Of a stretch of DNA of 64,000 nt, positions 7,842 through 61,665 are shown one piece after another. The translations under genes were made by a program, and so were the position numbers. The notes beneath the pieces are model-generated. The model ran no database searches and was not told where the DNA came from. It worked only from the letters and a program-made list of their open reading frames with translations. Every line of letters starts with the position of its first letter. Position 1 is the first letter of the stretch. Origin of the DNA: an uncultured Candidatus Saccharibacteria bacterium (GTDB lineage: Bacteria > Patescibacteriota > Minisyncoccia > Phycocordibacterales > PALSA-1337); contig CAZBVQ010000002.1 in the NCBI GenBank assembly GCA_964495685.1, forward strand, positions 38,790 to 102,789. The letters run 5' to 3'.

Positions 7842-8125
7842 GATGTTTATAAAAATATTAAAACTGACCAGACACCGGACGACACTTCCATACAACACGC
7901 AAAAATCCCGTTTCAATGAAAACGGTTATTAAGATCACTTCGTACTAGTAAGTGATATTCACGAGGTAGGACTAATGATGGACCTATCTAATCCTCCGCT
8001 ATCGGCCCTCCGAAGCCTTGGCGTAGGAGGACGTTGCAGAACACAATCTGCGAAGTTGCCATGAGCTTATCACAAGCTCTTATCTCGGTCAAGTACAACG
8101 TACTGATTATCCACAATGGTCAATG

Positions 8126-8223: not shown

Positions 8224-8739
8224 ATGGGTACCGAAAGAACGCTAATCTTTATTAAGCCAATGCCGAATGGCACACTTCTAACAGCCAGTGAAACGAATAA
8301 GTGGGCACAAATACTCGCTATGCTTTTGGGATTAGGTCGCGGGTTGTATGTCTTGGAATCATTCCTGAGCAAATTGGATGCCGCTACACTGAGATGCATC
8401 TATCCTGATCCGCCGAACACGGTGTGGCAAGCAACCCTTGTTCACTTATGCGATACAGAAGTACCCGTGTTCATTCTCGCCGGCGAAGACGCAATCGCCA
8501 AGATGAGCGCGCATATCGGAACCGATCCCGACCCGAATAAGTGCTCCGCTATTTCGGTCCGCCGGCTTATGACTGAGCTCGTCTCAAATCACAGCCCGAA
8601 CATCGAGGTTCTCAAAAATGGTCTCCCGCTTGGTGACGGACGAAAGTATTATTTTAACTGCGTCCACGTCAGCAGATCTAAGGAGGAATTTGCTAGGCAG
8701 TTTGCCGCACTGCAGAAGGCACGTGTCCTGAGAACATGA
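8224..8739 (+). CDS. nucleoside diphosphate kinase family protein (divergent)
   Basis: Aligns by eye to NDK: ERTLIFIKP matches ERTFIIIKP, GTDPDPNKCSAISVRRL matches GATNPADSxPGTIRGDF, and NCVHVSRSKEE matches NIIHGSDSVESAxRE with the catalytic His retained. It is very divergent. Confidence 0.55.
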   Translation: MGTERTLIFIKPMPNGTLLTASETNKWAQILAMLLGLGRGLYVLESFLSKLDAATLRCIYPDPPNTVWQATLVHLCDTEVPVFILAGEDAIAKMSAHIGTDPDPNKCSAISVRRLMTELVSNHSPNIEVLKNGLPLGDGRKYYFNCVHVSRSKEEFARQFAALQKARVLRT

Positions 8740-10713: not shown

Positions 10714-10753
10714 CCTAGGCCGGGCCTAGAAATGATTCTAGGCCCGGCCTAGA
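10714..10753. repeat. two inverted copies of the palindromic element CTAGGCCGGGCCTAG / CTAGGCCCGGCCTAG separated by AAATGATT
   Basis: Read directly. Copy 1 is at about 10717-10731 and copy 2 at 10739-10753. The second copy supplies the TAG stop codon of the cysteine desulfurase gene (10751..10749, minus strand). Confidence 0.9.
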
Positions 10754-11909
10754 AAAAAACGCTTCGAATGGCCTTGGTTGCAGCGCGTATATCCCCTTTG
10801 GTGGTCCATCTACCGAAGGAGAAACGGAGTGAAGTGCCGCTATCCACCTTCATGGCCCTCAATACATATGACTCTTCGGCGTCTCGAAGACACGAACTTT
10901 TGGTCGAACAAGCAATGCCACGAGCATCGAGCTGGAAGAGGAAAAATTCGTTATCAATTCCAGGAATAGATACGTTCGCAATATGAGGAGACTGCATATC
11001 CTCATCACCACCATTGACCTGAATGTCAGGCCGGATCTCTTTGAGCTCATTGATGAACATGTCGCGCAACGTTTTGATACGATCCGTTTCTTCAATCCGC
11101 TCTTCGACTGCCAACGTGACCGCTTTGGCGAATCCAGCAATCCCCGGAACATTCTCAGTACCTGACCTGAGCCCCTTCTCTTGTCCCCCACCGTACGTGG
11201 TAGCTCGAATGGGTATACCCCGCTTCACATAGAGACAACCCATACCGCGAGGACCGTATACTTTGCCCGCATCGAGCGTCAGGAGATCTACCCCGAGCTT
11301 CTCGACCAATACGTCTTGGAATAGAAATGCCTGTGCCGCATCAGTATGAAGCATTGGGTACTTGGATTCTAGGCCGGGCCTAGCATTTCGTTCCTTGCGT
11401 ACGAGATGTGCGACCTCGGCGATCGGTTGGATTGAACCGACTTCATTGTTGACCATCATGATGGATACCAGCACCGTATGTGGCTTGAATGATTTCTTGA
11501 GTTCATTCAAGTCGACGATCCCGTGAATGTCCACAGGAATCTGGGTAACCTCACACCCCCACCCCTCTAGAGCGGCGGTCATCTCTAGAATAGAGGAATG
11601 TTCGATAGCGGAAATGATGACATGTGGTCGCTCGATACCAGCTACCCGAGCGGCCTGAATGACACCGCTCAGTGCTAGATTGTTGGCTTCAGTACCACCA
11701 GAAGTGAAAATAATCTCATCTGGCTGGGCATGTATAGCAGAAGCAACGGATGCACGCGAAGCCGCCACTACTTTCTTGGCGGCAACACCCTCCTTGTATA
11801 AGGAAGATGGGTTTGCGTATGCAGATGCAGCATATACACCAATCTCCTTGGTAACTCGTGGATCGATGGGTGTCAGTGATGCGTAATCGAGATATATGCG
11901 TCGGGCCAT
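10749..11909 (-). CDS. cysteine desulfurase (NifS/IscS family, PLP-dependent)
   Basis: NifS/IscS-type sequence: TSGGTEANN, HTDAAQAF, and a SxHK-like region. The start is set at the internal ATG MARRIYLDYASL. It carries an in-frame palindromic-repeat insertion encoding NARPGLES just before HTDAAQ. Confidence 0.85.
   Translation of the reverse strand: MARRIYLDYASLTPIDPRVTKEIGVYAASAYANPSSLYKEGVAAKKVVAASRASVASAIHAQPDEIIFTSGGTEANNLALSGVIQAARVAGIERPHVIISAIEHSSILEMTAALEGWGCEVTQIPVDIHGIVDLNELKKSFKPHTVLVSIMMVNNEVGSIQPIAEVAHLVRKERNARPGLESKYPMLHTDAAQAFLFQDVLVEKLGVDLLTLDAGKVYGPRGMGCLYVKRGIPIRATTYGGGQEKGLRSGTENVPGIAGFAKAVTLAVEERIEETDRIKTLRDMFINELKEIRPDIQVNGGDEDMQSPHIANVSIPGIDNEFFLFQLDARGIACSTKSSCLRDAEESYVLRAMKVDSGTSLRFSFGRWTTKGDIRAATKAIRSVFF
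11369..11383. repeat. copy of the CTAGGCCGGGCCTAG palindrome inside the cysteine desulfurase CDS, in frame
   Basis: Identical 15-mer with the same flank GATT...CTAGC. On the minus strand it is translated as A-R-P-G-L-E. Confidence 0.9.
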
Positions 11910-18814: not shown

Positions 18815-19231
18815 CTAAACTATTTGCGCATCTTTGTCAAGCAGCTTATCCACAGTCCAGATACCCCCTCCGGCGAATACGATACTTAGCGTGGCCAATG
18901 CCAGACCGAAATCACGTACACCGATGGCACTGAGGCCGAGTGTGAGCGTAATGCTAAAAAGATGCAATCCGAGGAGGAGTGCAGATGTACGTGAGAAAAA
19001 ACCTATCAAGAGTGCTAGACCGAAGACGATCTCGAACGCACCATTGAAGTGAACGAGAGCAGCTGCCGAAAGATGCGACATGCTGATCGCGAAATCAGGG
19101 ACGAAACTCAACCACGCGCCAGTGTTGATGAGCTGCTGAGAGCCGAACCAGAGGAAGACCAAGGCCAGAGCGATGCGTACAATCGTCGGGCCAATTCCAG
19201 CCATAGTGATACGTGAAAATGTAGGATTCAT
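18815..19231 (-). CDS. DoxX-family membrane protein
   Basis: Four predicted TM helices. The pattern VRIALALVFLWFGSQQL is DoxX-like. Confidence 0.65.
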   Translation of the reverse strand: MNPTFSRITMAGIGPTIVRIALALVFLWFGSQQLINTGAWLSFVPDFAISMSHLSAAALVHFNGAFEIVFGLALLIGFFSRTSALLLGLHLFSITLTLGLSAIGVRDFGLALATLSIVFAGGGIWTVDKLLDKDAQIV

Positions 19232-22521: not shown

Positions 22522-24240
22522 CTATCTATCCGGCGGCACGTTGTAGTAGTCGATCAGGAACTTGCTGAGCTCACCGAACGGCTCTGCCAACGTCTCAGAC
22601 GCATACTGAGCTCCTTTGGGATACTTCTGATAGAGGAAGACGATGAAGCGCGGATTATAAGCCGGGAAATAGCCGAAGAATGAGTGCAAATAGCGATCTG
22701 GATAGTATGTCTTGGTCGCCGGATCCGCCACCTGAGCAGTACCCGTCTTGGCAGCGATACTATAGTGTTCCATTTTGAGTGCACCTTTACGGAGTGCTTC
22801 ATCCACAACTTTGACCAACATACGCGTCACCGTGTCAGCTGTCTCCACCTTCATGACTTGAGGACCATCAGTCGGAGTGATGAGCTTCTTGGTACCGTCG
22901 ACGTAGTCAATTTCTTTGACCAGATGCGGCTGTACCAGTCGACCACTATTGGCAAGAACCGCCAGACCACGTGTCATGGCCACCGGTGAGAGTGCAATAC
23001 CTTGACCATATGCCATGGTCGCAATTTCGATATCACGCCCTGTCTTCAAGTTGGGCGTCAGACCCGCAGTCTCATTGGGCTGATCGACGCCCGTCTTCGA
23101 GCCGAAACCGAAGGCTGTGAAGTATCGTACGAAATCGCTCTTCCCTACTTCTAGGGCCACCGTGGCTGCTCCCACATTCAAGGACTGACTAAGAATTTCC
23201 TGCACCGGTGTCACTGGCCCGCGTGCCTTACCATCGAAGTTCGCAATCGTCTTGCCAGAAAGTGTCATCGTGCCCGTGTCGTCATATGTCGATGTCGGCT
23301 TGATGGCACCCGTATCGAGACCTGTCGCCACCGTGAGCGGCTTCATGATCGATCCCATTTCATATGCATGCTCGACAAGTGGATTCGACAGGACACTGAC
23401 ATCTTTGAGTTTGGAAATGTCATTGGGGTCGAAGGCGGGTACCGAAGCCATAGCGAAGATTTCACCCGTCTTGGGGTCCATGATGATTCCACCAATCTCA
23501 TCCGATTTCCACTGTGTATGTATTTTGACTAGAATTTTCTCGAGATATCCCTGCACCGTCGGCTCGATGGTCGTGACAATATCGCCAGCCGTATCTTCTT
23601 CATCTCCACCGACGACTGAGTCATGAATGTTGGTGAACAATTGCGCGAACACATTGGCGGAGACACCGACATGAGTACGATTGAGTATGTTCTCATACGA
23701 ACGTTCGAGTCCGTAACGACCTTGGACAGCACCATCACTTTCACCGACAATACCGAGTGTGTGTGCGGCCAATCCAGCGCCCGGATACGAACGGACCATG
23801 TCCTTGCTCACGGACACCCCTTTGAGTGACAACCCCTGGATCGATTGCGCAACGGTCGCATCAATTTTCTTGGCCAATTCCTCATACGGATCAGTTGCAT
23901 CCGCCGTCTTTTTCAAGAACTGATCATGATCGATAGGTAGATACTGCGTGATTGCTTGATACGTCCCTTCTGGGTCAGTAATACTTTTGGGACTTATAGA
24001 CAGCGAATAGGTAGCCGTCAATGTTGCCGCTGAAGGATGCGTACCATCCTTGGCCGTGAAGGCAATTGAGCCACGATCGAATGTACTGGCAGATGGCTTC
24101 ACATACTGTTTCTGGGCTTTGCTGGCATATTCCTGACCGTGAATGATCTGGATGTTATAGAGCACCGCGACAATACCAAGGGCGGCACACACGATGCCGC
24201 CGAGAATGATCCGTGCACGTAGTCGTTGATTAGAGTTCAT
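22522..24240 (-). CDS. ftsI: penicillin-binding protein / FtsI-type transpeptidase
   Basis: N-terminal TM segment. SIMKP (SxxK), SQSLN (SxN) and KTGTA (KTG) motifs are present. Confidence 0.85.
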   Translation of the reverse strand: MNSNQRLRARIILGGIVCAALGIVAVLYNIQIIHGQEYASKAQKQYVKPSASTFDRGSIAFTAKDGTHPSAATLTATYSLSISPKSITDPEGTYQAITQYLPIDHDQFLKKTADATDPYEELAKKIDATVAQSIQGLSLKGVSVSKDMVRSYPGAGLAAHTLGIVGESDGAVQGRYGLERSYENILNRTHVGVSANVFAQLFTNIHDSVVGGDEEDTAGDIVTTIEPTVQGYLEKILVKIHTQWKSDEIGGIIMDPKTGEIFAMASVPAFDPNDISKLKDVSVLSNPLVEHAYEMGSIMKPLTVATGLDTGAIKPTSTYDDTGTMTLSGKTIANFDGKARGPVTPVQEILSQSLNVGAATVALEVGKSDFVRYFTAFGFGSKTGVDQPNETAGLTPNLKTGRDIEIATMAYGQGIALSPVAMTRGLAVLANSGRLVQPHLVKEIDYVDGTKKLITPTDGPQVMKVETADTVTRMLVKVVDEALRKGALKMEHYSIAAKTGTAQVADPATKTYYPDRYLHSFFGYFPAYNPRFIVFLYQKYPKGAQYASETLAEPFGELSKFLIDYYNVPPDR

Positions 24241-24565
24241 GACCCGAAAGAGCAATACGTCCAAGTGATGTGGTGCGGGAGATGAACGTGCTCACCGGTG
24301 CCTGATCGAGACCATGGGTTTTGATGGAATCAGGAGTGATACTGTGTGACAAAGCGATGTATTGAGTATCCAATGTATTGATGGCGGCATCGATAGTGGC
24401 AGTTTGCGTACCGACCTGTTGCAGTGCAATAGTGTGTGAAATAACACGATAGAGATTGAATGCGTAGACCAGTACCATCATGGCACAGACGGCCAGAAGA
24501 GCCAGATTAATCTGGCGACGATATCCGTGTATGGTTGTGTATGTGTGTACTATTACTTTGGTCAT
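24230..24565 (-). CDS. FtsL-like small single-TM cell-division protein (putative)
   Basis: Position between rsmH and ftsI, with one TM helix (INLALLAVCAMMVLVYAF). Confidence 0.4.
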   Translation of the reverse strand: MTKVIVHTYTTIHGYRRQINLALLAVCAMMVLVYAFNLYRVISHTIALQQVGTQTATIDAAINTLDTQYIALSHSITPDSIKTHGLDQAPVSTFISRTTSLGRIALSGHEL

Positions 24566-24573: not shown

Positions 24574-25485
24574 TTATAAAAAAGGTTTCTCTATAATGCG
24601 AAGCTTGGCACTCCGTGAACGAGGATTCTCAGCAATTTCTTGATCGCAGGCCGTAATGGGCTTCTTGGTGATAATCTGTGCCCCATTCACCGCTAATTCT
24701 TTGTAAAAATCTTTGACGATACGGTCTTCGAGACTATGGAATGAGATGATGGCCATGCGTCCACCGCGATTGAGGGCTGCGTATCCTTTTGCCAGACCTT
24801 CCTTGAGTGCATTCAGTTCATCGTTGACTGCAATACGTAGTGCCTGGAATGTCTTGGTAGCTGGATGAAGTTTGGCTCGACGATAGAACGGCGGAACTGA
24901 TGATTTGATGATTTCAGCCAGCTCAAGTGTCGTTTCAATATGCTTCTTGGTTCGATAATTCACGATGGCTCGTGCGATCTTGCGCGCAAATCGTTCTTCA
25001 CCATAGCCGAAAATGATATTGGCAATGACTTCTTCGTCCCATTCATTGACGATGGTAGTCGCCGTGAATGGATAACTTGCCGGATCACCCATAGTCATGA
25101 GCAAGGGCTCATCTTTCTGGAACGTGAAGCCACGTCCTGAGGTGTCGAGTTCGTCAGATGAGATACCGAGATCCATGAGTACCATATCGACGCCGGGGAT
25201 GGCGTGATTGGTGAGGACTGCATCGAGTTTACGGTAGTCGACATTCTCGAGAATGAGCTTGGTGGCGAGACCAGCTAGCATCTTGCCCGCTCGATCGATA
25301 GCATGTAGATCGCGATCGAGACCGATGATGGTCAGATTGCCGCCACATGCCTTGGCGATAGCCAGTGCATGACCGGCGCCACCGAGTGTGCAGTCGAGAT
25401 ATATCGACGACTCATTTGTGACTCTTCCCGGGACAAGGTCCCGGACTATTTCATGTAAAAGTACTGGTACGTGTACAGTTTCCAT
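24574..25485 (-). CDS. rsmH: 16S rRNA (cytosine1402-N4)-methyltransferase RsmH (MraW)
   Basis: VPVLLHEIV, LDCTLGGAGHA and GVDMVLMDLGISS motifs. Confidence 0.9.
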   Translation of the reverse strand: METVHVPVLLHEIVRDLVPGRVTNESSIYLDCTLGGAGHALAIAKACGGNLTIIGLDRDLHAIDRAGKMLAGLATKLILENVDYRKLDAVLTNHAIPGVDMVLMDLGISSDELDTSGRGFTFQKDEPLLMTMGDPASYPFTATTIVNEWDEEVIANIIFGYGEERFARKIARAIVNYRTKKHIETTLELAEIIKSSVPPFYRRAKLHPATKTFQALRIAVNDELNALKEGLAKGYAALNRGGRMAIISFHSLEDRIVKDFYKELAVNGAQIITKKPITACDQEIAENPRSRSAKLRIIEKPFL

Positions 25486-25488: not shown

Positions 25489-25929
25489 CTAGACCGCGCT
25501 TTCGCGACCAAGTTTGTCAGCCAAAGCATCAGCTTTGAGCTCGACTTCATGGACATACCTGTCCCACGCTTCTTCGTTCCACAGCTCGACTCGATCTTTG
25601 ACGCCGACGAAGGCAACCTTCGATACAAGCTGTGCTCGTTCGCGCAAATACTCGGGGATGAGCATGCGACCGACAGCGTCTACCTCGACCTCAACCGCTC
25701 GACCCAGAAGATAGCGGTTGAAGCCGCGGTTATCCGATGAGAGCATCGAAGATTCAGACACCGACAAACGTCCAGAAACTTTTTCCCATTCGCTCACCGT
25801 GAAGATGAACAAACAAGAATCGAGACCAGGCGTAACTACCACCGTCTTCCCCATTTCCTTGCGGAACTTGGACGGAAGAGACAAGCGGTTTTTGTCGTCG
25901 ATAGTGTGTCTATATTCCCCGATTAACAT
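25489..25929 (-). CDS. mraZ: transcriptional regulator MraZ
   Basis: Duplicated DDKNRLSLP / DRVELW MraZ halves at the head of the dcw cluster. Confidence 0.88.
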   Translation of the reverse strand: MLIGEYRHTIDDKNRLSLPSKFRKEMGKTVVVTPGLDSCLFIFTVSEWEKVSGRLSVSESSMLSSDNRGFNRYLLGRAVEVEVDAVGRMLIPEYLRERAQLVSKVAFVGVKDRVELWNEEAWDRYVHEVELKADALADKLGRESAV

Positions 25930-26038
25930 TGGATTGTGGAGATGTCGTAGATAGGAGCTGTTACCTATTTACCACTTCTTCCCACTTGATGGATATTATA
26001 TCCCACTTTACCCAAAAAAGCATGCAAAATAAGGTGTG

Positions 26039-26165
26039 GATAAGTAGAGGCATATCCCCACACGACATAATTCCTTCCTGACAAGCCGAAAATGTAGCCA
26101 GCGATCAGCGCTTTGAGGCTTGGAAGGAAGGAATTATGTCGTGTGGGGATATGCCTCGATAAGTA
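26039..26165. mobile_element. MITE-like element: 32-bp perfect terminal inverted repeats (GAGGCATATCCCCACACGACATAATTCCTTCC) around a 47-bp core, flanked by 8-bp direct repeats GATAAGTA
   Basis: Arm 1 at 26047-26078, arm 2 at 26126-26157. GATAAGTA at 26039-26046 and 26158-26165 is a TSD-like pair. Confidence 0.45.
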
Positions 26166-26166
26166 T

Positions 26167-26204
26167 CCAGGCCCGGCCTAGAAATATTTCTAGGCCGGGC
26201 CTGG
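26167..26204. repeat. 38-bp perfect palindrome CCAGGCCCGGCCTAGAAATATTTCTAGGCCGGGCCTGG (two inverted repeat units) plus a degenerate tail CTAGGGCCTGG at 26221-26231
   Basis: Read directly. Same family as 10714-10753. Confidence 0.9.
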
Positions 26205-26234
26205 AATCAGAACTTGGAATCTAGGGCCTGGAAC

Positions 26235-27704
26235 CTACCCCACATACCCCGCTCCACGTTCATACAACGTAAGCTGTGTCTGTTTCAAATTGTTGAGAAT
26301 AGACATGATGTACTTCCATGAAGCCATGATTTCATCAGTCGAAGCGAACAATGTCTGATCACCAACGAAGGCGTCATGAATGAGTCGCTCGTAGTCATTG
26401 GGAATCATGTCGAACGAGGCCGCATCACTGTACTTGAATTTGAGCGTCTTGGACTCCGTGGTGAAATCGTAACCTGGTTTCTTGACGAAGAAGCGAACGC
26501 GGATACCCTCATCCGGCTGTATACGGAAGGTCAGAATATTCTGCTGATTGCCGTTGACGCCATCCTTCTGACTTTCTCGTCCGCCATGACCTCGGCGAAG
26601 GTGGATACTTTTTGATTTGGGACTTTCTTTGAAATAAATGTCTACTTCGGCCTTCGTGTCGGCGAGCCCCTTGCCACTTTCGAGATAAAAAGGCACCCCC
26701 TTCCATCGCGGTGAGGCAATATGTGCCTGAATACGGAAATAGGTCTCTGTTTGTGAACTCGGCGAGATGCCTATCTCTTGCATATAACCCATGTACTGAC
26801 CTCGAACGACATGCGTGCCGATAGACCGTGCCGTCATCAGCTTCAATTTCGCCAATACCTTGGCACGTTCCTGACGAATATCACTAGCCTTGAATGAACG
26901 GGGTGGCTCCATCGCGATGATAGCGAGCATCATCAGCATATGATTCTGACCCACGTCCTTGAGTGCACCGATCGGATCGTAGAATGCACCACGTCCTTCC
27001 ATACCATTCTTCTCGAACAGCTTGATGTGGACCTTGTCGATGAATTCCCTGTTCCACAATGGCTCGAACATGGAATTGGCGAAACGAAATGCCGTGATGT
27101 TCTGTAATACCTCCTTCGCCAAATAATGATCGATGCGGAAGATCTGCTCTTCCTTGAAAAGCGCACCGAGTAATTTGTCCAAATGACGGGCCGTCTCACT
27201 ATCACTGCCGAAAGGCTTCTCGATCAGAATACGAGTCCACCCCGTACCATCGTCGCATGATTGGGCCAATCCTGAATGCGCAATATTACTCAAAATTTTC
27301 TCGTACAGGGTCGGCGGAACTGAGAGATGGTACAGCTTGTTGGAGCATTGACCCCATCGATCATCGATGCCTTTCATCTTGGTCGCCAGACGCGCATAGG
27401 CACCCGTGTCATCGAACATGCCTTGTTCGTAGACCATATGATCCAAGAAATGTTTGATGTCCTCCTCTTTGTATTGACCCGGTTTCACATTCATGCGACC
27501 ACGAATGTACTCACGAAATTCTTCACGACTGAAAACGCGCCGCGAAAAACCGATAATAGCAAATCGTTGTGGTAACAGCTGCTTTGCGTAGAGATTGAGC
27601 AGTGCAGGAATGAGTTTGCGCGCAGCCAAATCACCGGTGATACCGAATATCACGAAAATAGTCGGATGAAGTGCCGTTATTGATGAAGTACGAGTCTGTA
27701 TCAT
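26235..27704 (-). CDS. zwf: glucose-6-phosphate 1-dehydrogenase
   Basis: GITGDLAARKLIPAL NADP-binding motif, RIDHYLAKE, and a G6PD-like C-terminal domain. Confidence 0.9.
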   Translation of the reverse strand: MIQTRTSSITALHPTIFVIFGITGDLAARKLIPALLNLYAKQLLPQRFAIIGFSRRVFSREEFREYIRGRMNVKPGQYKEEDIKHFLDHMVYEQGMFDDTGAYARLATKMKGIDDRWGQCSNKLYHLSVPPTLYEKILSNIAHSGLAQSCDDGTGWTRILIEKPFGSDSETARHLDKLLGALFKEEQIFRIDHYLAKEVLQNITAFRFANSMFEPLWNREFIDKVHIKLFEKNGMEGRGAFYDPIGALKDVGQNHMLMMLAIIAMEPPRSFKASDIRQERAKVLAKLKLMTARSIGTHVVRGQYMGYMQEIGISPSSQTETYFRIQAHIASPRWKGVPFYLESGKGLADTKAEVDIYFKESPKSKSIHLRRGHGGRESQKDGVNGNQQNILTFRIQPDEGIRVRFFVKKPGYDFTTESKTLKFKYSDAASFDMIPNDYERLIHDAFVGDQTLFASTDEIMASWKYIMSILNNLKQTQLTLYERGAGYVG

Positions 27705-35247: not shown

Positions 35248-35262
35248 CTAGGCCGGGCCTAG
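35248..35262. repeat. copy of CTAGGCCGGGCCTAG between the uvrA start and the response-regulator stop
   Basis: Identical 15-mer with the TTCTAGG...CTAGAATCC flank. Confidence 0.9.
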
Positions 35263-36095: not shown

Positions 36096-36177
36096 GCCGG
36101 GGTGGTGAAATTGGTAGACACGCATGCCTTAGGAGCATGTAGAGCAATCTGTGGAGGTTCGAGTCCTCTCCCCGGCA
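36096..36177 (+). tRNA. tRNA-Leu (anticodon UAG), type II with a long variable arm
   Basis: Acceptor GCCGGGG / CCCCGGC. 3-bp D stem. Anticodon arm CAUGC-CUUAGGA-GCAUG. T arm GGAGG-UUCGAGU-CCUCU. Confidence 0.8.
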
Positions 36178-36308
36178 CATGAGCGAAGCGAATGGCAAGA
36201 GCAAGACACCTGCGTGTCTTGCGGGAGAAGGACTCGAAAAGGCTGAGTATATTTCTGAGGAGCTTTGCTCCGAAGAAATACGAAGCCTGTACTGCGCCTG
36301 TAAGGCGA

Positions 36309-37108: not shown

Positions 37109-37639
37109 TTATTTTCCGCCAGACTCGAAATCTTGTGTCATTTTGAAAGTCACTTTCCCTCTCAATTTGCCACCCAAGCCTTTGGACTCTATGGATGACA
37201 TAGCTGCATAAAGATCCAGTAATGCCTCGGGCGACTTGTCGAGTTTGTATCTATTAAGTGTATAGCCATTTTTGAGATACTCTCGCAATACACCAGTAGC
37301 CCAGATGCGGAACTGGGTAGCCTTCTTTGAATTGACGCGGTAGCCGACGGCGATGATAGCATCGAGGTTGTAGCATTCAATTTGGCGTTTTACGGTTCTA
37401 CCACCCTCTTTTTGAACTTGTTCCAAAATGGAACAAGTTGAATTTTTTATTAATTCACCTTCTCCATATATATTCTGAAGATGCTTAGTTATAGCTTGTG
37501 AGTTTACATCAAATAATTCTGCTATCTGTCCCTGCGTCGCCCAAATCGTATCCTTCTCCACATCAGCTCGTAATTCTATATTCCCATCCTTACCTTCATA
37601 GATAATAATGTTATTCTTTGTGATCGTCTTTGTATTCAT
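37109..37639 (-). CDS. RhuM-family protein, N-terminal portion only (possibly a truncated remnant)
   Basis: ATQFRIWATGVLREYLKNGY is the RhuM-family signature. The ORF is about half the length of typical family members. Confidence 0.55.
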   Translation of the reverse strand: MNTKTITKNNIIIYEGKDGNIELRADVEKDTIWATQGQIAELFDVNSQAITKHLQNIYGEGELIKNSTCSILEQVQKEGGRTVKRQIECYNLDAIIAVGYRVNSKKATQFRIWATGVLREYLKNGYTLNRYKLDKSPEALLDLYAAMSSIESKGLGGKLRGKVTFKMTQDFESGGK

Positions 37640-47518: not shown

Positions 47519-47533
47519 CTAGGCCGGGCCTAG
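47519..47533. repeat. copy of CTAGGCCGGGCCTAG in the 25-nt spacer between rpiB and rpe
   Basis: Identical 15-mer, 5 nt from the rpiB stop and about 7 nt from the rpe start. Confidence 0.9.
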
Positions 47534-47536: not shown

Positions 47537-48004
47537 TTATTCAATCGCATCTATCTGTTCAATCCGTCTCTGGTGTCTCTCATCTCCACTGAAAGGTGTA
47601 CTCAACCAAACTCCCACAGCATCACATGCTCCATCTGCATCGACATATCGCGCACCTATGGAAAGTACATTGGCATCATTGTGCTCGCGTGACTTCTTCA
47701 GGATATCCTGATCCCCACCATACCAGACCGCAGCACGGACTCCGGGGAAGCGATTGGCGACCATGGCTTCACCCTGCCCTGATGCACCGAAAATGATGGC
47801 TTTGGTATTCCCGGTAATATCTTCGGCGACTTTGAGCGCAGCGGCCGACATGAAAACGGGATAATCATCGCCGTCTACCAGCTCATGCGCCCCCACGTCG
47901 AGAACGGTGTACATATCTGCATGTTCACGTGCCAGAAATGCTTTGACGGCTTCTTTGGCGGCGAAACCAGCGTGATCGGAGGCGAGGATGATAGTGGTGT
48001 TCAT
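47537..48004 (-). CDS. rpiB: ribose-5-phosphate isomerase B
   Basis: MNTTIILASDHAGF and an RpiB/LacAB fold of 155 aa. Confidence 0.88.
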   Translation of the reverse strand: MNTTIILASDHAGFAAKEAVKAFLAREHADMYTVLDVGAHELVDGDDYPVFMSAAALKVAEDITGNTKAIIFGASGQGEAMVANRFPGVRAAVWYGGDQDILKKSREHNDANVLSIGARYVDADGACDAVGVWLSTPFSGDERHQRRIEQIDAIE

Positions 48005-48103
48005 GCCCCTATCTTAGCACACTAGTTTTCTTTTTGTTCACCAACTAATAGAGCCCCCGAGACGATCGTCACAGCAAGCATTCCAGGCGTAGCTACCTAT
48101 AAC

Positions 48104-48478
48104 CTATTGATTTGGATACCTAACATTTGAAGTAGACGTATCATTCACATAAACTGTCGCTGGTTTTTCTAGTCGATTACAACGTCTGCCGAGAGATAAT
48201 TGCAGATCGCAATTAGTACCGAAAACATATACGGCTCCAACTGATACCAGAATAATTACTACAAATGTCACGCTTCTAATCGTGAGACTCTGAATAGCGA
48301 AAATCAAATGACCGATAAGCCAGGCCAAAAATAAAGCCAGAAACGGTGACAACAAGAATACTGGTATCAAAAACTCTCCACCATCTGTTACTTGGTCCGA
48401 GATAAGAATCAAAACAACCGCACTGAGAGCAAAAGCTGGTAACAAACCAATAACTACTCGCTTAAAGATATTTGTCAT
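48104..48478 (-). CDS. hypothetical multi-TM membrane protein
   Basis: 124 aa, hydrophobic. Preceded by conserved leader element copy 1. Confidence 0.45.
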   Translation of the reverse strand: MTNIFKRVVIGLLPAFALSAVVLILISDQVTDGGEFLIPVFLLSPFLALFLAWLIGHLIFAIQSLTIRSVTFVVIILVSVGAVYVFGTNCDLQLSLGRRCNRLEKPATVYVNDTSTSNVRYPNQ

Positions 48479-48483
48479 GTTTT

Positions 48484-48562
48484 TTAATTATTACACTAAC
48501 CTCCCCGCTCTGATCACCTGCCCCACCACTGTATACATGTACCCATCTCATTATCACGTTAG
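48484..48562 (-). promoter_or_regulatory. conserved leader element, copy 1 (in gene orientation: ...GTATAC..GTGG.GCA.GTGATCA.AGCGGGGAG.TTA...TAATAATTAA then ATG)
   Basis: About 80% identical to 49469-49547 over roughly 50 nt. Contains TGATCA and GTATAC palindromes. Confidence 0.5.
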
Positions 48563-48566
48563 AACT

Positions 48567-49466
48567 TTATCTCGTAATGGTGAAATACTTATCACTCGTA
48601 TCGACAATGCCTCTTCCTCCTCCATAATTTGTCACCCCAATTTCTATTTTATAGTTACCTGGAGAAAGGCTGAATCTGTCCTCGGGCAAACTCGATGTCT
48701 TACCTATACACATAGTAGTCGCAGGAGTAAAAATAAAGACTCCTTGTTTCGCTGAAACTTCTCCATCAACAGGATCACAGAAATCAGAGAAGTCTGTCCC
48801 CGATCTAAGTCTGATAGCAACTTTGGCGTCATTAGATAAACCCGATGATGTCCACTTGATCGATTTTGATTCAGACATTTTCCAGATCTCTCCGCCATTA
48901 GGAGAAATAATGGTTATGGAAGGGACTGAAACAGGCTGTGTCACGGGACTATTAGTCGTCTCACTTACTTTAGGTTGAGCTGAGATTGTAAACAGCTCGC
49001 TCTTATTCCCTACCCCCACAATTTCTCCAGTTGAATAAAGACCTATGCGATATTTACCAGGCTGTACAACTCCTTGAACTTCGTCGCCTTGAATAATCCA
49101 GCTAAACGAGCCTGAGTTTGGCGATCCTTGAGAAATTTTTCGAACCGTATTGCCATTCTGGTCAATAAGATTAATGCCAATCCCTGCCGTATTAATGTCC
49201 ATTCCCAATCCACTGGAATTCCAATTAATCTTCAAATTGTCTCCAATTTTATATGTCTCTCCGTTTTTCGGCGAAGTAATCATAATTGAAGGCGAAGCAG
49301 CTGGTTGTGATGTTACTGAGGCATCATCAGTTTGATTAACTTGGGGTTGCTGTTGGTCAATACTTACTGATTTTTTAATAAATGCAAAATAACCGACAGC
49401 AACTAAAAGAACAATTATAAGTACAATCAACCAAATATTTACTGATCCCTTTTGTGTATTCTTCAT
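48567..49466 (-). CDS. secreted/anchored protein with two tandem beta-sandwich-like repeats
   Basis: N-terminal TM segment. Repeat units ITSPKNGETYKIGDNLKINWNSSG...GKYRIGLYS...ELFTI and IISPNGGEIWKMSESKSIKWTSSG...GNYKIEIGV...KYFTI. Confidence 0.5.
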   Translation of the reverse strand: MKNTQKGSVNIWLIVLIIVLLVAVGYFAFIKKSVSIDQQQPQVNQTDDASVTSQPAASPSIMITSPKNGETYKIGDNLKINWNSSGLGMDINTAGIGINLIDQNGNTVRKISQGSPNSGSFSWIIQGDEVQGVVQPGKYRIGLYSTGEIVGVGNKSELFTISAQPKVSETTNSPVTQPVSVPSITIISPNGGEIWKMSESKSIKWTSSGLSNDAKVAIRLRSGTDFSDFCDPVDGEVSAKQGVFIFTPATTMCIGKTSSLPEDRFSLSPGNYKIEIGVTNYGGGRGIVDTSDKYFTITR

Positions 49467-49468
49467 AA

Positions 49469-49547
49469 ATTTAAATTATTAAATTAATCTCCCCGCCTTG
49501 ATCACATGCTCCACAAGCGTATACGTATACCCCATTTCGTTGTTATA
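49469..49547 (-). promoter_or_regulatory. conserved leader element, copy 2
   Basis: See copy 1. It lies immediately upstream of the ATG at 49466. Confidence 0.5.
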
Positions 49548-49768
49548 CCATGCGGGTAATTTTTCCCTGTTTTTTGTCATATTGCAGAAATTATATCATG
49601 AGTTCAATCTTTAAATCTCCGTTCGCCCGTCTTTTGAAACAGCAAAAATTTGTAGTCTCAAAAGGCGAGCGAGAGATAAAATATGCTGTCAATGTTCTTG
49701 CTTTACATGATAAACAAACACTTGTTTAATAGCAAGCGCTGAAATATGGCCTGAACACTGCTTAATTC

Positions 49769-50740
49769 CTAGCAATGAACAGCTCTTGTTCTTGGAATCT
49801 TGTATTTCTTGTGTCTCTGGTTTCTTGGTACATTTCTGAAGGAATCGTAACGACGCTGGAGATCGGGACCGGTCATCATCGTATAAATCATCGAACTCTC
49901 AAGACTTGAGTGACCGAGAATATTTGAAACGTCTGAATTTGATCCGCCCTTGTTCACAATATCTCGACCCATATAATGTCGCATTGAGTGCGCATTCATT
50001 GTTGGTATACCAGCACGGTTAGAATTAGTGCGGAGCATTTCAGCCACGTTGAAGGTGGTCATTCTTTTTCCTCTCACATCATTCTGACCACACTTTGAAA
50101 CTGTAACAAATAGCGCATCGAGGTCTTCAAAGCTAAATAGTTTATATAAATGTTTTCTCTTGCTTACCCACTTTTTGAGGAGAGCATTTGTGGTTGGTGT
50201 CCAAAAAATTTCACGAATCGGTCTACGACCGCGTGATTTTTCTGTGCGTATGAGCGCTTTGCGATTATCCAAATCAAGATCGCCAACATTTAAAGAAACG
50301 ATCTCGCCGTTTCGAGCGCCCGTATCCCAGAGTAATGATATGACTGCCCTGTTTCTAATGTGATGAGGATTATTACCCTTTGGAATAGAGTTAAGTAATT
50401 TTTTGAAACCTTGTTCAGTTGCAATTCGAGGTATGTTGTACTCTTTCTTGGGGGTTGGAATAAGAAATTCATTAATAACTTTAAAGCCTTGAAGGTTATA
50501 AAATTCAAAGAATTTCTTGAGGGCCAAGGTGACAATACGAATGCCGTTTCTTTTCCAGCCGAGCTCTGTCATCAAATTCAAATAATCCATCACGTGCTGA
50601 ATAGTGATGTTTTCTATATGCGGATTTTTGAGATAGAGACAAAAGATGCGAAGCACTTTGTCGTATCGTTTGACCGTATGACCGGTCACTTTGATCTGTC
50701 TCCAACCGCTGAATTGGTCGATAGCGTCTTTGAATAGCAT
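49769..50740 (-). CDS. tyrosine-type site-specific recombinase/integrase
   Basis: C-terminal catalytic region AHSMRHYMG...LGHSSLESSMIYT (R..H..R..Y residues) and an N-terminal SAM-like domain. Confidence 0.85.
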   Translation of the reverse strand: MLFKDAIDQFSGWRQIKVTGHTVKRYDKVLRIFCLYLKNPHIENITIQHVMDYLNLMTELGWKRNGIRIVTLALKKFFEFYNLQGFKVINEFLIPTPKKEYNIPRIATEQGFKKLLNSIPKGNNPHHIRNRAVISLLWDTGARNGEIVSLNVGDLDLDNRKALIRTEKSRGRRPIREIFWTPTTNALLKKWVSKRKHLYKLFSFEDLDALFVTVSKCGQNDVRGKRMTTFNVAEMLRTNSNRAGIPTMNAHSMRHYMGRDIVNKGGSNSDVSNILGHSSLESSMIYTMMTGPDLQRRYDSFRNVPRNQRHKKYKIPRTRAVHC

Positions 50741-51154
50741 ACATGGCCAACCAAAAAGCCCACTCGATGCTACTCAAAGTGGACTTCTGGTGGCCGTCTG
50801 CTCATAGAGCTTATTGCCATTCCCTAGCTAGGGAGACATAACCTCGCGGTCACATCATCAACATTTTCCCCTATCCTTTAGGAAATAGCAAGGTCATGTT
50901 TTGATCAAAAGTCCATCGGTAGCATCAGGTCATTCTGACCCTGATCCCTTACGGGGCGATGGAGCATATTCGGTTGTCACTACATCCTAGTGTAGTGCCT
51001 TTCCATTGTCAAGAAGGATATTTCATTGGATAGTAATATGGAGAGCAGAACATCAAAATAGTCAATTAAAATAAGGCTTTTTTGAGATATATAAAGAAAA
51101 GTCACATCACCTTTTAAGCAATGCGACTGTGTTTTTCGGAAAATGATCTATTTG

Positions 51155-52153
51155 TCAGAGCTTTTCCCGAATCTGCTCCAAAAAGGCAGCGATGCTCATA
51201 TCCAAGGCCGGTAAATGCCCTTGAGCGTCAATTTCGATAGGTAATGATACCCTCGGATTCTTGCTCAAAAGCTCACTTATCGTCATTTTGGACCCCATAA
51301 GGCTGAAGATTTCGATGCTGATATCAAGGCAAAGCCTCGACAAGTCTCGTGCTCCTTCAGTCGGCAGACTTGCCCACTCCTCGATCCTGCCGAATGGAAG
51401 GATGTATGGATAAGCACAACTGAAACCGTCTGGGGTTCGGACCGGCATCAAACTTTGCGATGTCTGCTCACCGATGACACGTCCACAGTTCGGACTGAAT
51501 GGGATGAGGTCGTGATCGGGAATCCAATCAATGAGATCTTTGATCGGATGCACCATCACAATCTCGCCGGTAAATACTTCCTGAATAGTTGATCGTGAGC
51601 CATTACAACAGAATCCGAGAATGATCGCCGTAACCTTGATACTTCTGCTTTCAAGCTCATGGAGGACAAACTTGAGTGTGCCTCCAGTGAATGCACCGTC
51701 TTCAATTAGCACGATTGAACGACCGGCGATCTTCTCGGTTAGCTCATCAAGCTGTGTCCCCAGCGGATCGAATCCTGGACGCGGACCATACCCTATCATC
51801 ACTCCGTCTGAATTAAACAACCGATTGATGTTGAGGAGTAAACCTTCGCTTTTTGGATTTGAGTCTGCGATCTCGAAGCAGGTGCTGAGAACTGCTTGCT
51901 GACTGAGGTCGGTGATACGACCATCGACTTGTTCCCAGATTTTTCGCCGAAGCTCATTCATCTCGATTGTGTCGATCGTGATGCTTGGCAGAGCTCGTTG
52001 TATCTTTTTAAACAAACCGATGTGGAAGCGCTCAAACAATAAATCATCCGGCTGTGGGACAGCAAAGCCTTTTGCACGGAATGACTGAAGCCGACTGGCA
52101 ACATCGTAGGTAACCACATAGGTTCCACGACGATCCGAATGGATTTCTGACAT
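51155..52153 (-). CDS. phosphoribosyltransferase (PRTase)-domain protein of unknown specificity
   Basis: PRPP-binding motif SIVLIEDGAFTGGTL in the middle of a 332 aa protein. The flanking regions match no family I recognise. Confidence 0.5.
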   Translation of the reverse strand: MSEIHSDRRGTYVVTYDVASRLQSFRAKGFAVPQPDDLLFERFHIGLFKKIQRALPSITIDTIEMNELRRKIWEQVDGRITDLSQQAVLSTCFEIADSNPKSEGLLLNINRLFNSDGVMIGYGPRPGFDPLGTQLDELTEKIAGRSIVLIEDGAFTGGTLKFVLHELESRSIKVTAIILGFCCNGSRSTIQEVFTGEIVMVHPIKDLIDWIPDHDLIPFSPNCGRVIGEQTSQSLMPVRTPDGFSCAYPYILPFGRIEEWASLPTEGARDLSRLCLDISIEIFSLMGSKMTISELLSKNPRVSLPIEIDAQGHLPALDMSIAAFLEQIREKL

Positions 52154-52235
52154 GGAAACCTCCTATGGTTGAATTGTTTATGGAAAAGAACTGATTGAAA
52201 TCAGTTCTCAGTGTATCTCTATATCAATGAATTAG

Positions 52236-52559
52236 CTAATTATTCCCCTCATCCTTCATTCGATCGATGAGCATTTTGTATCCGCCACAGCCTTCTTTGA
52301 GCCAACGATTAATTTTGGTGATTGTCACGGGAGACTCGCCTGACTCCTCTTGAATCTGAGAAAAAGGAACGCCTGCATCAAGCTTCTTGGCAACCTCCCA
52401 GCGCATGGCAAATTCTCGGAGATCACGCTCACTCATCAGGTCACGGAAGAATGCTTTGAGTTCATCCTCGTTTTTGAGCGACAAAAAAGCCTTGATCAAA
52501 TCGGGAGATTTTTGTTGTATCTCAGCCCATATTCCGTTTTTTTCTTCATCAGGAATCAT
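52236..52559 (-). CDS. TrpR-like YerC/YecD family DNA-binding protein
   Basis: FFRDLMSERDLREFAMRWEVAKKL...GESPVTITKINRWLKEGCGGY is close to the YerC/YecD consensus. Confidence 0.75.
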   Translation of the reverse strand: MIPDEEKNGIWAEIQQKSPDLIKAFLSLKNEDELKAFFRDLMSERDLREFAMRWEVAKKLDAGVPFSQIQEESGESPVTITKINRWLKEGCGGYKMLIDRMKDEGNN

Positions 52560-52577
52560 ATTTAATAAATTATAACA

Positions 52578-53330
52578 TTACTTCCCTTTCCAGTGAACCA
52601 CTCGATTTTCGATAAACATCATTATTTTGTTCAATACAAATCCGATGACACCAGTCATGAGTATAGCTGCGTACATATCAGCTGTTTGGTACACAAGTTG
52701 AGCATCAATAATACGTTTTCCAAGACCTGCTTCAGTACCGATAAACATTTCAGTAACGATGACGATTATGAGGGAGAGTGAGATCGCGACACGGAAGCCC
52801 GAAAAGATTTGTGGCAATGCTTCAGGAAAAATGACCTTCCGGAAAAGTTCAAATCCTTTCACTTTCATTGTTTTGGCAACACGCACACGTAACTCTTTGC
52901 CGAGGTGTACTCCGTACATTGAGTTAATAAGGATCACCAGACCAGCTCCCCATGCAGTGACGGCAAATTTAGCCTGATCGCCAATTCCAAATACAAGAAG
53001 AAATAGAGGAAACAATGCTGTTGTCGGAATGCCTCGAAAAAACTCAACAGTGAATTCAAGAGCATTGTAAATCTTACTTGAATAGCCCATGAGAAGTCCG
53101 AGTGGTACTCCAATAATTGCCGCAACAGCAAAGCCAACCAGAACACGATATAGTGTGTGCCCTATGTCATTCAACATTGTTCCATTTTGGATTGAATCAA
53201 TAAGGTGGATAAATACATCATATGGAGATGCTAGGAATAGAGGACTGACAAGTTGTAAATATGAAATTACCCACCAGAGGCAGAGTAGAATTATCGGTAT
53301 CAGAACGTAATATAATTTCTTATTTTTCAT
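52578..53330 (-). CDS. ABC transporter permease (nitrate/sulfonate/taurine/ThiX type)
   Basis: Six TM segments and a binding-protein-dependent transport motif (ALNSMYG...). Confidence 0.85.
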   Translation of the reverse strand: MKNKKLYYVLIPIILLCLWWVISYLQLVSPLFLASPYDVFIHLIDSIQNGTMLNDIGHTLYRVLVGFAVAAIIGVPLGLLMGYSSKIYNALEFTVEFFRGIPTTALFPLFLLVFGIGDQAKFAVTAWGAGLVILINSMYGVHLGKELRVRVAKTMKVKGFELFRKVIFPEALPQIFSGFRVAISLSLIIVIVTEMFIGTEAGLGKRIIDAQLVYQTADMYAAILMTGVIGFVLNKIMMFIENRVVHWKGK

Positions 53331-54072
53331 ATTCGAAAGTATTTAGAATTGCATTACGAAGCTCGGTAAATTCAGGACTTGAAAGCATATCGAGGGTTCT
53401 TGGGCGTGGAAGTTTTACCTCAAAAATCTTTTTTATACTCGCGGGGCGAGGAGAAAGTACTACTACTTTATCGGCCAGAAAAATTGCCTCGTCTATATCA
53501 TGACTTACAAATAAAGTAGTTATCTTTTTCTCTTGCCAAATATCGAGAAGCTCCAATTCCATCTTTCGCGTGGTTGAATAATCAAGAGCAGAAAATGGCT
53601 CATCCATAATCAGAATATCTGGGTCATAGGCAATAGAGCGACATATAGAAACAAGCTGACGTTGACCGCCAGAGAGTTCGTAGACAAACCTATCTTTTGA
53701 GTGAAGTAGACCCACCTTGTTCAATAAGTGCTCAGCGATTTTTTGCTGCTTATCCTTATTGACTCTCGCAATCTCGAGTGGAAAAACAATATTTTCCAAA
53801 ACTGTCCGCCAAGGGAATAGGCTCTCGTTATAATTCTGAAATACAAAACCCACTTGAGCATCTTTAGGATTTTTGCCGCTTACCTTTACTTCACCTGATT
53901 CAGGGATTTCAATTCCAGCAACAATATTGAGTAGAGTTGTTTTACCTGATCCATTCGGGCCGAAAACAGTTACGAATTCACCTTTATTCACCTCAAGGTC
54001 AATGCCGTCAATAACTCTGGTATCACCAGAATCTTTTTTAAAGGTTTTTGCTATTCCGGCAAGTGAAATCAT
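53320..54072 (-). CDS. ABC transporter ATP-binding protein
   Basis: GPNGSGKTTL Walker A, LSGGQRQLVSICRS signature, ILIMDEPFSALD Walker B. Confidence 0.9.
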   Translation of the reverse strand: MISLAGIAKTFKKDSGDTRVIDGIDLEVNKGEFVTVFGPNGSGKTTLLNIVAGIEIPESGEVKVSGKNPKDAQVGFVFQNYNESLFPWRTVLENIVFPLEIARVNKDKQQKIAEHLLNKVGLLHSKDRFVYELSGGQRQLVSICRSIAYDPDILIMDEPFSALDYSTTRKMELELLDIWQEKKITTLFVSHDIDEAIFLADKVVVLSPRPASIKKIFEVKLPRPRTLDMLSSPEFTELRNAILNTFEYEK

Positions 54073-54078
54073 TACAGT

Positions 54079-55035
54079 CTATTTGTAATACGCATTGGTC
54101 AAATCTGGTTTTGATGTGAACTCTCCAGAGGCGACTAAAATGTCAAGTAATTTAGCAACAAGAGTTTTATCTATCTGCTGCGAATTTCTAAAGTAAGTCA
54201 TCCCGAGAACATCAACTACTTTCTGATCTAGCTTGAAAAGTGTCCTCGTCATATCCCTTACGTCTTTATCATTTGTATGGAGATAATCGAAAGCCCGATC
54301 AAAAGCATTTACAACTTTCTTAGCCTCACGAGGATGATTATTCACAAATTGAGTGCTTACGAGCGCTACCCCTAATGGACTGTGCTCTAATTGTTCAGAA
54401 TAGACTGAACCATAAATCTTCCTTATTCCACCACTTGTAAGTGCGATAGATATTGTAGGTTCATATGTGAATAAGGCGTCAATTGAACCTGCTGTAAGCG
54501 CAGTGAGGTGTTGTGGTGGTGGTAATTGTACAAATTGGATTGTGGAAGAATCTATGCCCTTTTCCTTAAGAAAAAGTTTGAACATATTTGAAGCACTCGT
54601 GCCTGGAAATACCCCAATCTTTTTGCCCTTCAAATCCTCGAGAGTCTTAATGGTAGAGTTTTCTTTTACCAAAAGGGAGTCAAACGGCACATCGCTCGTA
54701 ATATCAGTTAGAGCGATAATTTTCATTTTGCCAGGATCAACCATTTCAGCATTCAGATATGGAAGTATAGATATTTCAGGAGTGAGATCTATGTCTCCCC
54801 GAGCAAGCGCATCAACAATTTGATTTGAGGTCTGAAGTTGTGTGGCTTGAACAGTGATACCCTGATCTTCAAAAAACTTTTTCTGTTGAGCTATTTCTAA
54901 AGGAAGTTGGCTGGCTGTTATAGGTAGATATCCAATTTTTACCACATAGTCTGAGGGTTTATTTGAGCTTCCGATCCGAACAGCTACTAAAGCCAACACT
55001 ACTACGATTCCTATTATCCAAAATGATTTTTTCAT
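54079..55035 (-). CDS. ABC substrate-binding protein, NMT1/THI5/SsuA-like (paralogue 1)
   Basis: Signal peptide, then IGYLPITASQLPL. The C-terminal SKPDLTNAYYK is shared with the paralogue at 56931. Confidence 0.8.
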   Translation of the reverse strand: MKKSFWIIGIVVVLALVAVRIGSSNKPSDYVVKIGYLPITASQLPLEIAQQKKFFEDQGITVQATQLQTSNQIVDALARGDIDLTPEISILPYLNAEMVDPGKMKIIALTDITSDVPFDSLLVKENSTIKTLEDLKGKKIGVFPGTSASNMFKLFLKEKGIDSSTIQFVQLPPPQHLTALTAGSIDALFTYEPTISIALTSGGIRKIYGSVYSEQLEHSPLGVALVSTQFVNNHPREAKKVVNAFDRAFDYLHTNDKDVRDMTRTLFKLDQKVVDVLGMTYFRNSQQIDKTLVAKLLDILVASGEFTSKPDLTNAYYK

Positions 55036-55165
55036 GCTAATAAAATTAATGTTTTTTGATAAAATCTGAATTCTAAAGGCTTGCAACATTCTACCACAAA
55101 TGATGCCCCGTGTGTAGTTTTTTTAGGATTTTTGGACTCTAATCAAAAGAAGGACAATTAGAATA

Positions 55166-55864: not shown

Positions 55865-55871
55865 ATGCTGT

Positions 55872-56591: not shown

Positions 56592-56597
56592 GATCGT

Positions 56598-56918: not shown

Positions 56919-56930
56919 TGTTTTTCCAAT

Positions 56931-57890: not shown

Positions 57891-57943
57891 AAAAGTTAGT
57901 AATAAATCTATGGCTCTAGGGCCAATCTATATAATTTGTTATA

Positions 57944-59364: not shown

Positions 59365-59365
59365 G

Positions 59366-60247: not shown

Positions 60248-60257
60248 ATATTACTTA

Positions 60258-61541: not shown

Positions 61542-61639
61542 AGTATTTATATTGTACTGTGCATTTTAGCTCTTTTTTGCACAGTACACCTATTTTACTG
61601 GACAAAATGGTGGCAAGTCAAGGGGATAATAACCAAACT

Positions 61640-61665
61640 AAAACGCCAGAATTAGCTGGCGTTTT
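61640..61665. terminator. perfect hairpin AAAACGCCAG-AATTAG-CTGGCGTTTT
   Basis: 10-bp stem with A and T flanks in a 430-nt intergenic region. Confidence 0.55.

Follow-up and report, generated by a model that had tools for sequence, protein, structure and literature searches.

Bacterial MITEs, compared here by description only, include Correia in Neisseria, RUP in Streptococcus pneumoniae, ERIC/IRU in enterobacteria and MITE_Aba12 in Acinetobacter. These families consist of non-coding, intergenic units of ∼100–150 bp with terminal inverted repeats (TIRs), which fold over their whole length into a single hairpin and have a short target duplication at their flanks; they are often located between the 3′ end of a gene and the promoter that follows, where they can influence the ends of transcripts. 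A 111-bp hairpin element with perfectly inverted ends, located at 26047–26157 of the 64-kb window (the whole stretch of Patescibacteria DNA analysed here) between zwf and the mraZ promoter, resembles these families in size, anatomy and position. Unlike the described MITEs, which number from tens to hundreds per genome and for which a parent insertion sequence (IS) is usually known, the element has one known copy and no parent. In addition, Correia and RUP duplicate TA (2 bp), whereas the duplication that flanks the 111-bp element is 8 bp.

Target duplications of 8 bp are found in the IS families IS256, ISL3, IS1595, IS6 and IS66. The element is similar to members of these families in displaying an 8-bp duplication and inverted ends within the range of ∼25–40 bp, and an IS of this type that lost its interior would persist as a remnant of this kind. 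In contrast to these IS families, however, the element lacks a transposase gene, and any assignment of its end, GAGGCAT..., to one of them is putative.

Two further systems bear on the locus. The REP/BIME sequences of proteobacteria are, like the motif that forms a palindrome adjacent to the element, short palindromic sequences located mostly after stop codons and sometimes arranged as inverted doublets; the motif reported here is 15 bp and occurs about eight times in 77 kb. REP/BIME sequences lack a flanking duplication, whereas the 111-bp element has one and is not repeated, and no RAYT (Y1) transposase gene was seen in the window. Intrinsic (Rho-independent) terminators also comprise a stable hairpin that separates a stop codon from the promoter downstream, and relatives have true terminators at this position. 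While such terminators have a stem of 5–15 bp followed by a U-tract, the stem of the element is 33–46 bp and no U-tract is present.

Anatomy and setting of the element

All the genes around the element are on the minus strand. The features of the locus are as follows, where features without a direction are listed as unstranded.

22522–24264, minus strand: PBP gene
24230–24565, minus strand: ftsL
24574–25485, minus strand: rsmH
25489–25929, minus strand: mraZ (Pfam MraZ), with which the dcw cluster (mraZ-rsmH-ftsL-PBP) begins
25970–26008, minus strand: mraZ promoter core, three AAGTGG(G/T)A repeats around a TATAAT −10 sequence, nearly invariant in relatives
26035–26043, minus strand: TTATCCACA box, which fits the DnaA-box consensus perfectly and comes first among the conserved elements of the mraZ promoter block
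26039–26046, unstranded: promoter-proximal copy of the direct repeat, GATAAGTA (TACTTATC on the gene strand), the TTATC of which opens the conserved mraZ promoter block
26047–26079, unstranded: arm 1, perfect 33-bp TIR, GAGGCATATCCCCACACGACATAATTCCTTCCT, which includes TATCCCCACA
26080–26124, unstranded: internal spacer, 45 nt
26125–26157, unstranded: arm 2, perfect 33-bp TIR
26158–26165, unstranded: distal copy of the direct repeat, GATAAGTA, which carries the TTATC part of the box only
26166–26205, unstranded: perfect 40-bp palindrome, not part of the element, an inverted doublet of the 15-bp motif CTAGGCCGGGCCTAG
26235–27704, minus strand: zwf (glucose-6-phosphate dehydrogenase; Pfam G6PD_N and G6PD_C), the 3′ region of which is occupied by the palindrome and the element
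10715–10752, 11369–11383, 26166–26205, 35248–35262 and 47519–47533 in the window and L105:4038–4052 outside it, unstranded: occurrences of the CTAGGCCGGGCCTAG motif

On the gene strand the order is thus the zwf stop, 29 nt, the palindrome (26205–26166), TACTTATC, the element (26157–26047), TACTTATC and the mraZ promoter. This is the position, between the zwf stop and the mraZ promoter, that an earlier note on the sequence had given, and the identities of zwf and mraZ are confirmed by Pfam. The same note described perfect TIRs of 32 bp separated by 47 bp and an abutting perfect palindrome of 38 bp (26167–26204). Both structures are real, although blastn and folding extend the TIRs to 33 bp, with a spacer of 45 nt, and the true extent of the palindrome is 40 bp. 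The 8-bp direct repeat was as described, with both copies of GATAAGTA touching the arm ends directly. The A and the G that border the arms on the outside are unable to pair, so the ends of the direct repeat are sharply defined. The probability of eight identical flanking bases at fixed positions by chance is 4^-8 (∼1.5e-5), and the arm match was recovered in none of 100 shuffles of the window.

The outer 13–14 nt on each side of the spacer (26080–26092 and 26112–26124) continue the inverted repeat imperfectly, with A·G-type mismatches, bringing it to 46 nt with 91% identity around a loop of 19 nt. Beyond the perfect outer 33 bp, pairing, as read from the sequence, drops to 10 of 14 inner positions, a pattern that would be expected if the ends are transposase-binding sites. 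The spacer contains neither an ORF nor a promoter-like site, and no ORF is contained within the element; the sole ORF of at least 40 aa that touches it (25929–26081, 50 aa) starts far outside the element and ends in arm 1. As RNA read from the gene strand the element folds at −75.5 kcal/mol (z = −13.7), and as DNA at −47.8 kcal/mol. The pairing is exclusively Watson–Crick, without any G-U pair, and symmetric between the two strands, and the mismatches are A·G or C·T; these features fit an origin at the DNA level rather than selection at the RNA level. The string GAGGCATATCCCCACACGAC could serve to trace further copies of the element in reads or genomes.

The neighbouring palindrome forms an 18-bp hairpin (−38.8 kcal/mol) 29 nt past the zwf stop. 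The 13-nt core of its motif, CTAGGCCGGGCCTAG, has 14 strand-matches in the window with up to two mismatches, compared with 0.5 expected. The motif occurs at positions 10715 and 10738 (another doublet), 11369, 26167, 26190, 35248 and 47519, with one occurrence outside the window. Six of the seven positions in the window are intergenic, mostly 0–30 nt past the stop codons of minus-strand genes, while one copy lies inside a class-V aminotransferase ORF. The two inverted doublets form hairpins of 17–20 bp. The motif is absent from ∼0.93 Mb of related loci, and Pfam identified no RAYT (Y1) transposase among the window ORFs. CTAGGCCGGGCCTAG is a REP-like, species-specific family that is distinct from the 111-bp element.

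The direct repeats AAGTGG(G/T)A of the mraZ promoter are at 25970–25977, 25980–25987 and 26001–26008, and the TATAAT −10 sequence is at 25995–26000. By analogy with the published MraZ operators of E. coli and Mycoplasma we take these repeats to be MraZ operator boxes, and together they presumably form the MraZ operator. The element is inserted within the upstream TTATCCACA box, between TTATC and CACA, and the duplication keeps the box intact. The box could be a DnaA site or, alternatively, an inverted or distal MraZ box. Of 77 Patescibacteria loci, 38 have a perfect DnaA-box consensus sequence (TTATCCACA or TGTGGATAA) in the 200 nt that precede mraZ, compared with 0.1% of control windows; when up to one mismatch is allowed these values are 59 of 77 loci and 4%, respectively. 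Further copies of the consensus are present in the window at 8107–8115 (plus strand) and 18846–18854 (plus strand), and a copy in the window is 10 nt upstream of a promoter-like site (TTGACA-16-TAATAA) that precedes the ORF at 8224–8739. Literature searches on MraZ together with DnaA boxes returned nothing relevant. A replication origin, considered in view of the DnaA-box-like motifs, was rejected: the cumulative GC skew keeps falling through the 26-kb region with no lasting reversal, and the flanking genes are co-oriented.

The insertion point in related loci

The mraZ and zwf loci of relatives were collected, and the promoter alignment comprised the window and nine Patescibacteria loci. The window belongs to an uncultivated Patescibacteria (CPR) bacterium of Parcubacteria- or Paceibacteria-like appearance. 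RsmH is only 71–72% identical in the nearest GTDB genomes, and the nearest zwf proteins anywhere are 84–86% identical, excepting conspecific contigs (99–100%). The mraZ promoter block is nearly invariant, with the form (G)TTATCC(A/C)CAC...TTGCATGC...AAAGTGGGATATAATATCCATCAAGTGGGAAGAAGTGGTA. In the nine relatives the conserved block opens at TTATCC(A/C)CA, and upstream of TTATCC nothing is alignable. When the element and one copy of the repeat are removed from the window (...CCTGGATACTTATCCACACCTTATTTTGCATGC...), the remaining sequence can be aligned, gap-free, with every one of the nine relatives beginning at TTATCC. The element interrupts the conserved block 5 nt from its edge, and the conserved TTATC recurs on the far side of the hairpin. 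The earlier note had proposed that the flanking repeat is a target-site duplication; this is borne out by the overlap of the proximal copy with the conserved promoter block and by the gap-free alignment that removal restores, and the 8-bp duplication behaves as a true target-site duplication. Growth of a structure in place within the variable spacer would stop at the boundary of the block without duplicating conserved bases, whereas insertion at a staggered cut would explain the second TTATC exactly. We regard the gap-free alignment in combination with the duplicated conserved bases as the strongest single evidence for a putative transposition event.

The element and the palindrome are absent from every related locus examined. 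The relatives that lack the element include loci whose zwf products are 84–86% (L094–L104) and 76–79% (L007, L008 and L087–L091) identical at the amino acid level. In the search for empty sites in relatives that the earlier note advised, the orthologous sites were empty in all the related species examined, while the conspecific assemblies all carry the element, the nearest other species being only 86% identical in zwf. Absence at ≤85% amino acid identity is weaker evidence than a true empty-site polymorphism, because the zwf-mraZ spacer is hypervariable, with genes, hairpins and terminators that come and go. Upstream of TTATCC there are only 29 nt in L088 and L091, a small hairpin and a T-run in L096, L006 and L099, a terminator and an unrelated 140-nt imperfect hairpin in L007, and one to three extra genes in L087, L089, L094, L095 and L099. 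Terminators were called in L099 and L007, and a hairpin with a T-run was seen in the sequences of L006 and L096. The spacer is a hotspot of gene gain in the clade (L087, L089, L094, L095 and L099–L104), and depending on the relative it contains a two-component system, unknown small ORFs or a gene that runs in the opposite direction.

Two candidate homologues in relatives were considered. The 140-nt hairpin of L007 would, as a diverged homologue, have favoured a conserved structure, but this was rejected: its alignment score is below the shuffle mean, and two terminator T-runs account for the repeat at its flanks. An element in L012, the arms of which contain CCCCCACA at the same offset, displayed no significant similarity to the window element and is a lead only.

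Long hairpin elements of 68–171 nt (most 100–171 nt), with arms of 22–33 nt, are common in related Patescibacteria loci (L012:1551–1721, L051:5882–5987, L053:5888–5993, L060:5926–5993, L074:5427–5533 and L014:10211–10311). Several occupy the mraZ–rsmH interval or the mraZ leader, and none is similar in sequence to the window element. L013:906–1047 (CAYIQG010000032.1) is a 142-bp element with perfect 29-bp inverted ends inside the rsmH frame, in frame and with no stop; the L013 RsmH is 371 aa compared with 303 aa in the window. This insertion is reminiscent of the Rickettsia palindromic elements, although it could also be an assembly artefact. The occurrence of hairpin elements of 100–170 bp with perfect or near-perfect inverted ends in related loci, one of them in rsmH, indicates that such elements exist in the group. 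In addition, the same 21–27-nt inverted repeat (TGTATACTACCACTATACTAC...), with identical flanks, is present upstream of zwf in L007 (2964–3246) and L087 (1326–1508).

Copy number, transposase and assembly support

The earlier note suggested a search for further copies of the TIR and for a cognate transposase, and neither was found. No second copy is present in the 64-kb window or in 13 kb of extra DNA from the same genome, which together represent perhaps a tenth of the genome, and probably no more (a 521-kb scaffold gives a lower bound on genome size). Searches with blastn-short, allowing up to 8–9 mismatches in 32 nt, of ∼1 Mb of related loci, the window and the extra 13 kb returned only the element itself. 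A terminal arm 20-mer had no exact match in GTDB representatives, JGI metagenomes or IMG/VR, collections without this species; a second arm 19-mer had no exact match in IMG/VR; and blastn of the 127-nt element with its repeats against plasmids and phages also returned no match. These negative results mainly reflect the absence of the species from the collections searched. Pfam revealed no DDE or Y1 transposase in 38 window ORFs, and none was present in precomputed Pfam calls on same-species contigs, which covered the remaining ORFs. Literature searches for MITEs in Patescibacteria or CPR returned nothing relevant. The element was also compared by eye with the anatomy of attC, dif, CRISPR and retron sequences, all of which were rejected, since a core-site motif, an array and an RT gene are missing.

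These data bear on the earlier identification of the element as a MITE. The TIRs, the 8-bp target-site duplication, the small size and the lack of an ORF are consistent with that term, whereas a repeated family and a link to a transposase were not found where searched. The single copy, as far as searched, is a feature that the note had listed as pointing away from a mobile element; the lack of any empty site, which it had listed alongside, does not apply to the relatives.

The sole recombinase found in the Pfam scans is a tyrosine recombinase (49769–50740). Next to this gene the GC content falls from ∼0.49 to ∼0.39 past 48 kb (48000–64000). Elsewhere in the window the 3′ end of a tRNA (36096–36177) is repeated in inverted orientation at 36222–36238, and a RhuM-like gene (37109–37639) follows the repeat. 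An ORF for a cell-wall amidase (Amidase_2) is located at the window end (62946–63542), and past the right end of the window are several large ORFs without a Pfam match, one of which has a LysM domain. These features may mark integrated or foreign DNA.

Public assemblies of the same species comprise ENA ERZ28656156 and Logan DRR274959, DRR198513, SRR6747782 and SRR12487013. All five of these independent assemblies carry parts of the element, and all end inside the element or the palindrome; none of the sampled assemblies represents a conspecific strain with an empty site, an allele that in reads would be visible as the direct join ...CCTGGATACTTATCCACACC.... That every public short-read assembly of the species breaks at this point raises the question of an assembly artefact, either a false join or a fold-back chimera. 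De Bruijn graphs, however, break at inverted repeats longer than k, and the breaks read as this signature rather than that of a false join. Moreover, ENA scaffold_1 and scaffold_3052 each read through one arm and the whole loop, with a unique loop overlap of 22 nt in the same orientation, the arm sequence is identical in Logan contigs from other samples, and the zwf-mraZ adjacency is confirmed in relatives. An artefact is, in view of these data, extremely unlikely. The tendency of the element and the palindrome to break short-read assemblies of the species at an exact point will be useful to note when such genomes are closed.

Origin and possible role of the element

The 111-bp element is probably the product of DNA transposition, a non-autonomous foldback element that is either a MITE or the remnant, through deletion in place, of a full IS. 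It can be labelled an orphan MITE-like element, although it could equally be a full IS whose interior was lost in place. The basis for transposition is the anatomy of the element, the insertion point within a conserved block, the empty orthologous sites and the presence of the element in all sampled conspecific assemblies. In the proposed mechanism a presumed transposase would have cut the target with an 8-bp stagger, placing the element into TACTTATC; this target corresponds to the first bases of the TTATCCACA box, which is conserved upstream of the mraZ promoter. Repair of the gaps would have duplicated the 8 bp, so that the box and promoter stayed intact, while a truncated copy of the box (TTATC only) would have remained on the zwf side. 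The perfect arms need not mean that the insertion was recent, because the adjacent palindrome is also perfect and a process that perfects palindromes, such as template switching, may operate.

Alternatively, the hairpin may have evolved in place as a structure of the zwf 3′ region, a stable RNA that acts as a terminator, insulator or 3′-end stabilizer, the 8-bp repeat being a coincidence or by-product. The position, past the zwf stop and ahead of the mraZ promoter, fits such a role, as does the extreme stability of the predicted fold; a hairpin of some kind immediately precedes the TTATCC box in most of the relatives examined (L099, L007, L006 and L096), and the window has no canonical terminator there. 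However, neither the element hairpin nor the palindrome hairpin is followed by a U-tract (the sequence after the hairpin is UACUUAUCCACA), and the lack of G-U pairs, together with mismatches confined to A·G or C·T, provides no indication of selection at the RNA level. Rfam searches, at gathering thresholds and at E≤10, returned only generic matches to miRNA-precursor-like hairpins far below the gathering scores. The structure is conserved in no relative, the L007 hairpin being unrelated in sequence, and evolution in place does not account for a precise 8-bp duplication that takes in 5 nt of the conserved promoter block. Evolution in place is, on this balance, unlikely, and the structured RNA of ∼110 nt that the earlier note offered as its second interpretation is not supported by the Rfam searches, the pairing or the comparison with relatives. 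A local replication error, in which a template switch or snap-back event generated an inverted duplication of pre-existing sequence with no transposase involved, would draw on the observation that each arm contains TATCCCCAC, identical to the native box of the closest relatives (GGTTATCCCCACC; L096, L099, L006, L094 and L088), and that the start of the arm, GAGGCATATCCCCAC, resembles TAGGTTATCCCCAC of these relatives; the perfect 40-bp palindrome next to the element also hints at a process in this genome that generates or corrects palindromes. The similarity extends over only ∼9–14 nt, however, and was noticed post hoc, with a roughly estimated chance of ∼0.003 for a local 9-mer match, while no relative has, at this locus, a match to the spacer or to the other parts of the arm. 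Furthermore, inverted duplications do not normally make an exact flanking direct repeat, and the inner part of the element is asymmetric (10 of 14 positions paired), whereas a fresh inverted duplication would be symmetric. A replication error is thus quite unlikely.

The occurrence of box-like sequences in the arms also raises the possibility that the element is a regulatory DNA module, in which two extra copies of the box (TATCCCCACA, DnaA-box-like or MraZ-box-like) beside the native TTATCCACA alter control of the dcw operon by a box-binding protein; its origin could still be transposition. The strong conservation of the box upstream of mraZ across the phylum, the identity of the arm motif to the box variant of the closest relatives, an additional copy in the window upstream of another gene (15962) and an insertion that is exactly in the box and leaves it intact are consistent with such a module. 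The element is, however, found in only one species and relatives function without it, the motif match is short, and the box-binding protein is putative; we consider a regulatory module very unlikely. The match of the arm motif could mean either that the ends of the element resemble its preferred target, as is known for some IS families, for example IS30, or that they add regulatory copies of the box. A further reading is that of a site-seeking foldback element rather than a random insertion, the ends of which would mimic the conserved TTATCC(A/C)CA box of Patescibacteria promoters (DnaA-box-like or distal MraZ-box-like), target it, add two copies of the box by the dcw promoter and so rewire the control of division by replication or MraZ. 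We view this site-seeking reading as highly improbable; it would be consistent with the arms, which carry the relatives' version of the box, with the insertion exactly within the box and with the striking conservation of the box across the phylum.

Returning to the probable transposition product, the element is today most likely inert selfish DNA, and we can only infer any present-day mobility. As RNA it would form a hairpin of −75 kcal/mol in the 3′ region of zwf, after the 40-bp palindrome. In contrast to most relatives examined, there is no terminator composed of a hairpin and a T-run between zwf and mraZ, and no terminator-like site on the minus strand in this interval; the two hairpins may therefore incidentally stabilize the zwf 3′ end or block read-through. 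A role of this kind, which is speculative, would be a by-product of the element and not its origin.

If the element is the footprint of transposition, cut-and-paste mobile DNA was active in a very small Patescibacteria (CPR) genome. The site is a sensitive one, with a metabolic gene on one side and the cell-division operon promoter on the other, and the element may have replaced the usual terminator there. Should the site-seeking reading be true, the control of cell division by replication or MraZ signals would have been rewired in a reduced-genome symbiont. The DnaA-box-like motif upstream of mraZ, the REP-like motif and the hairpins inside genes of relatives may hold a broader interest than the 111-bp element.
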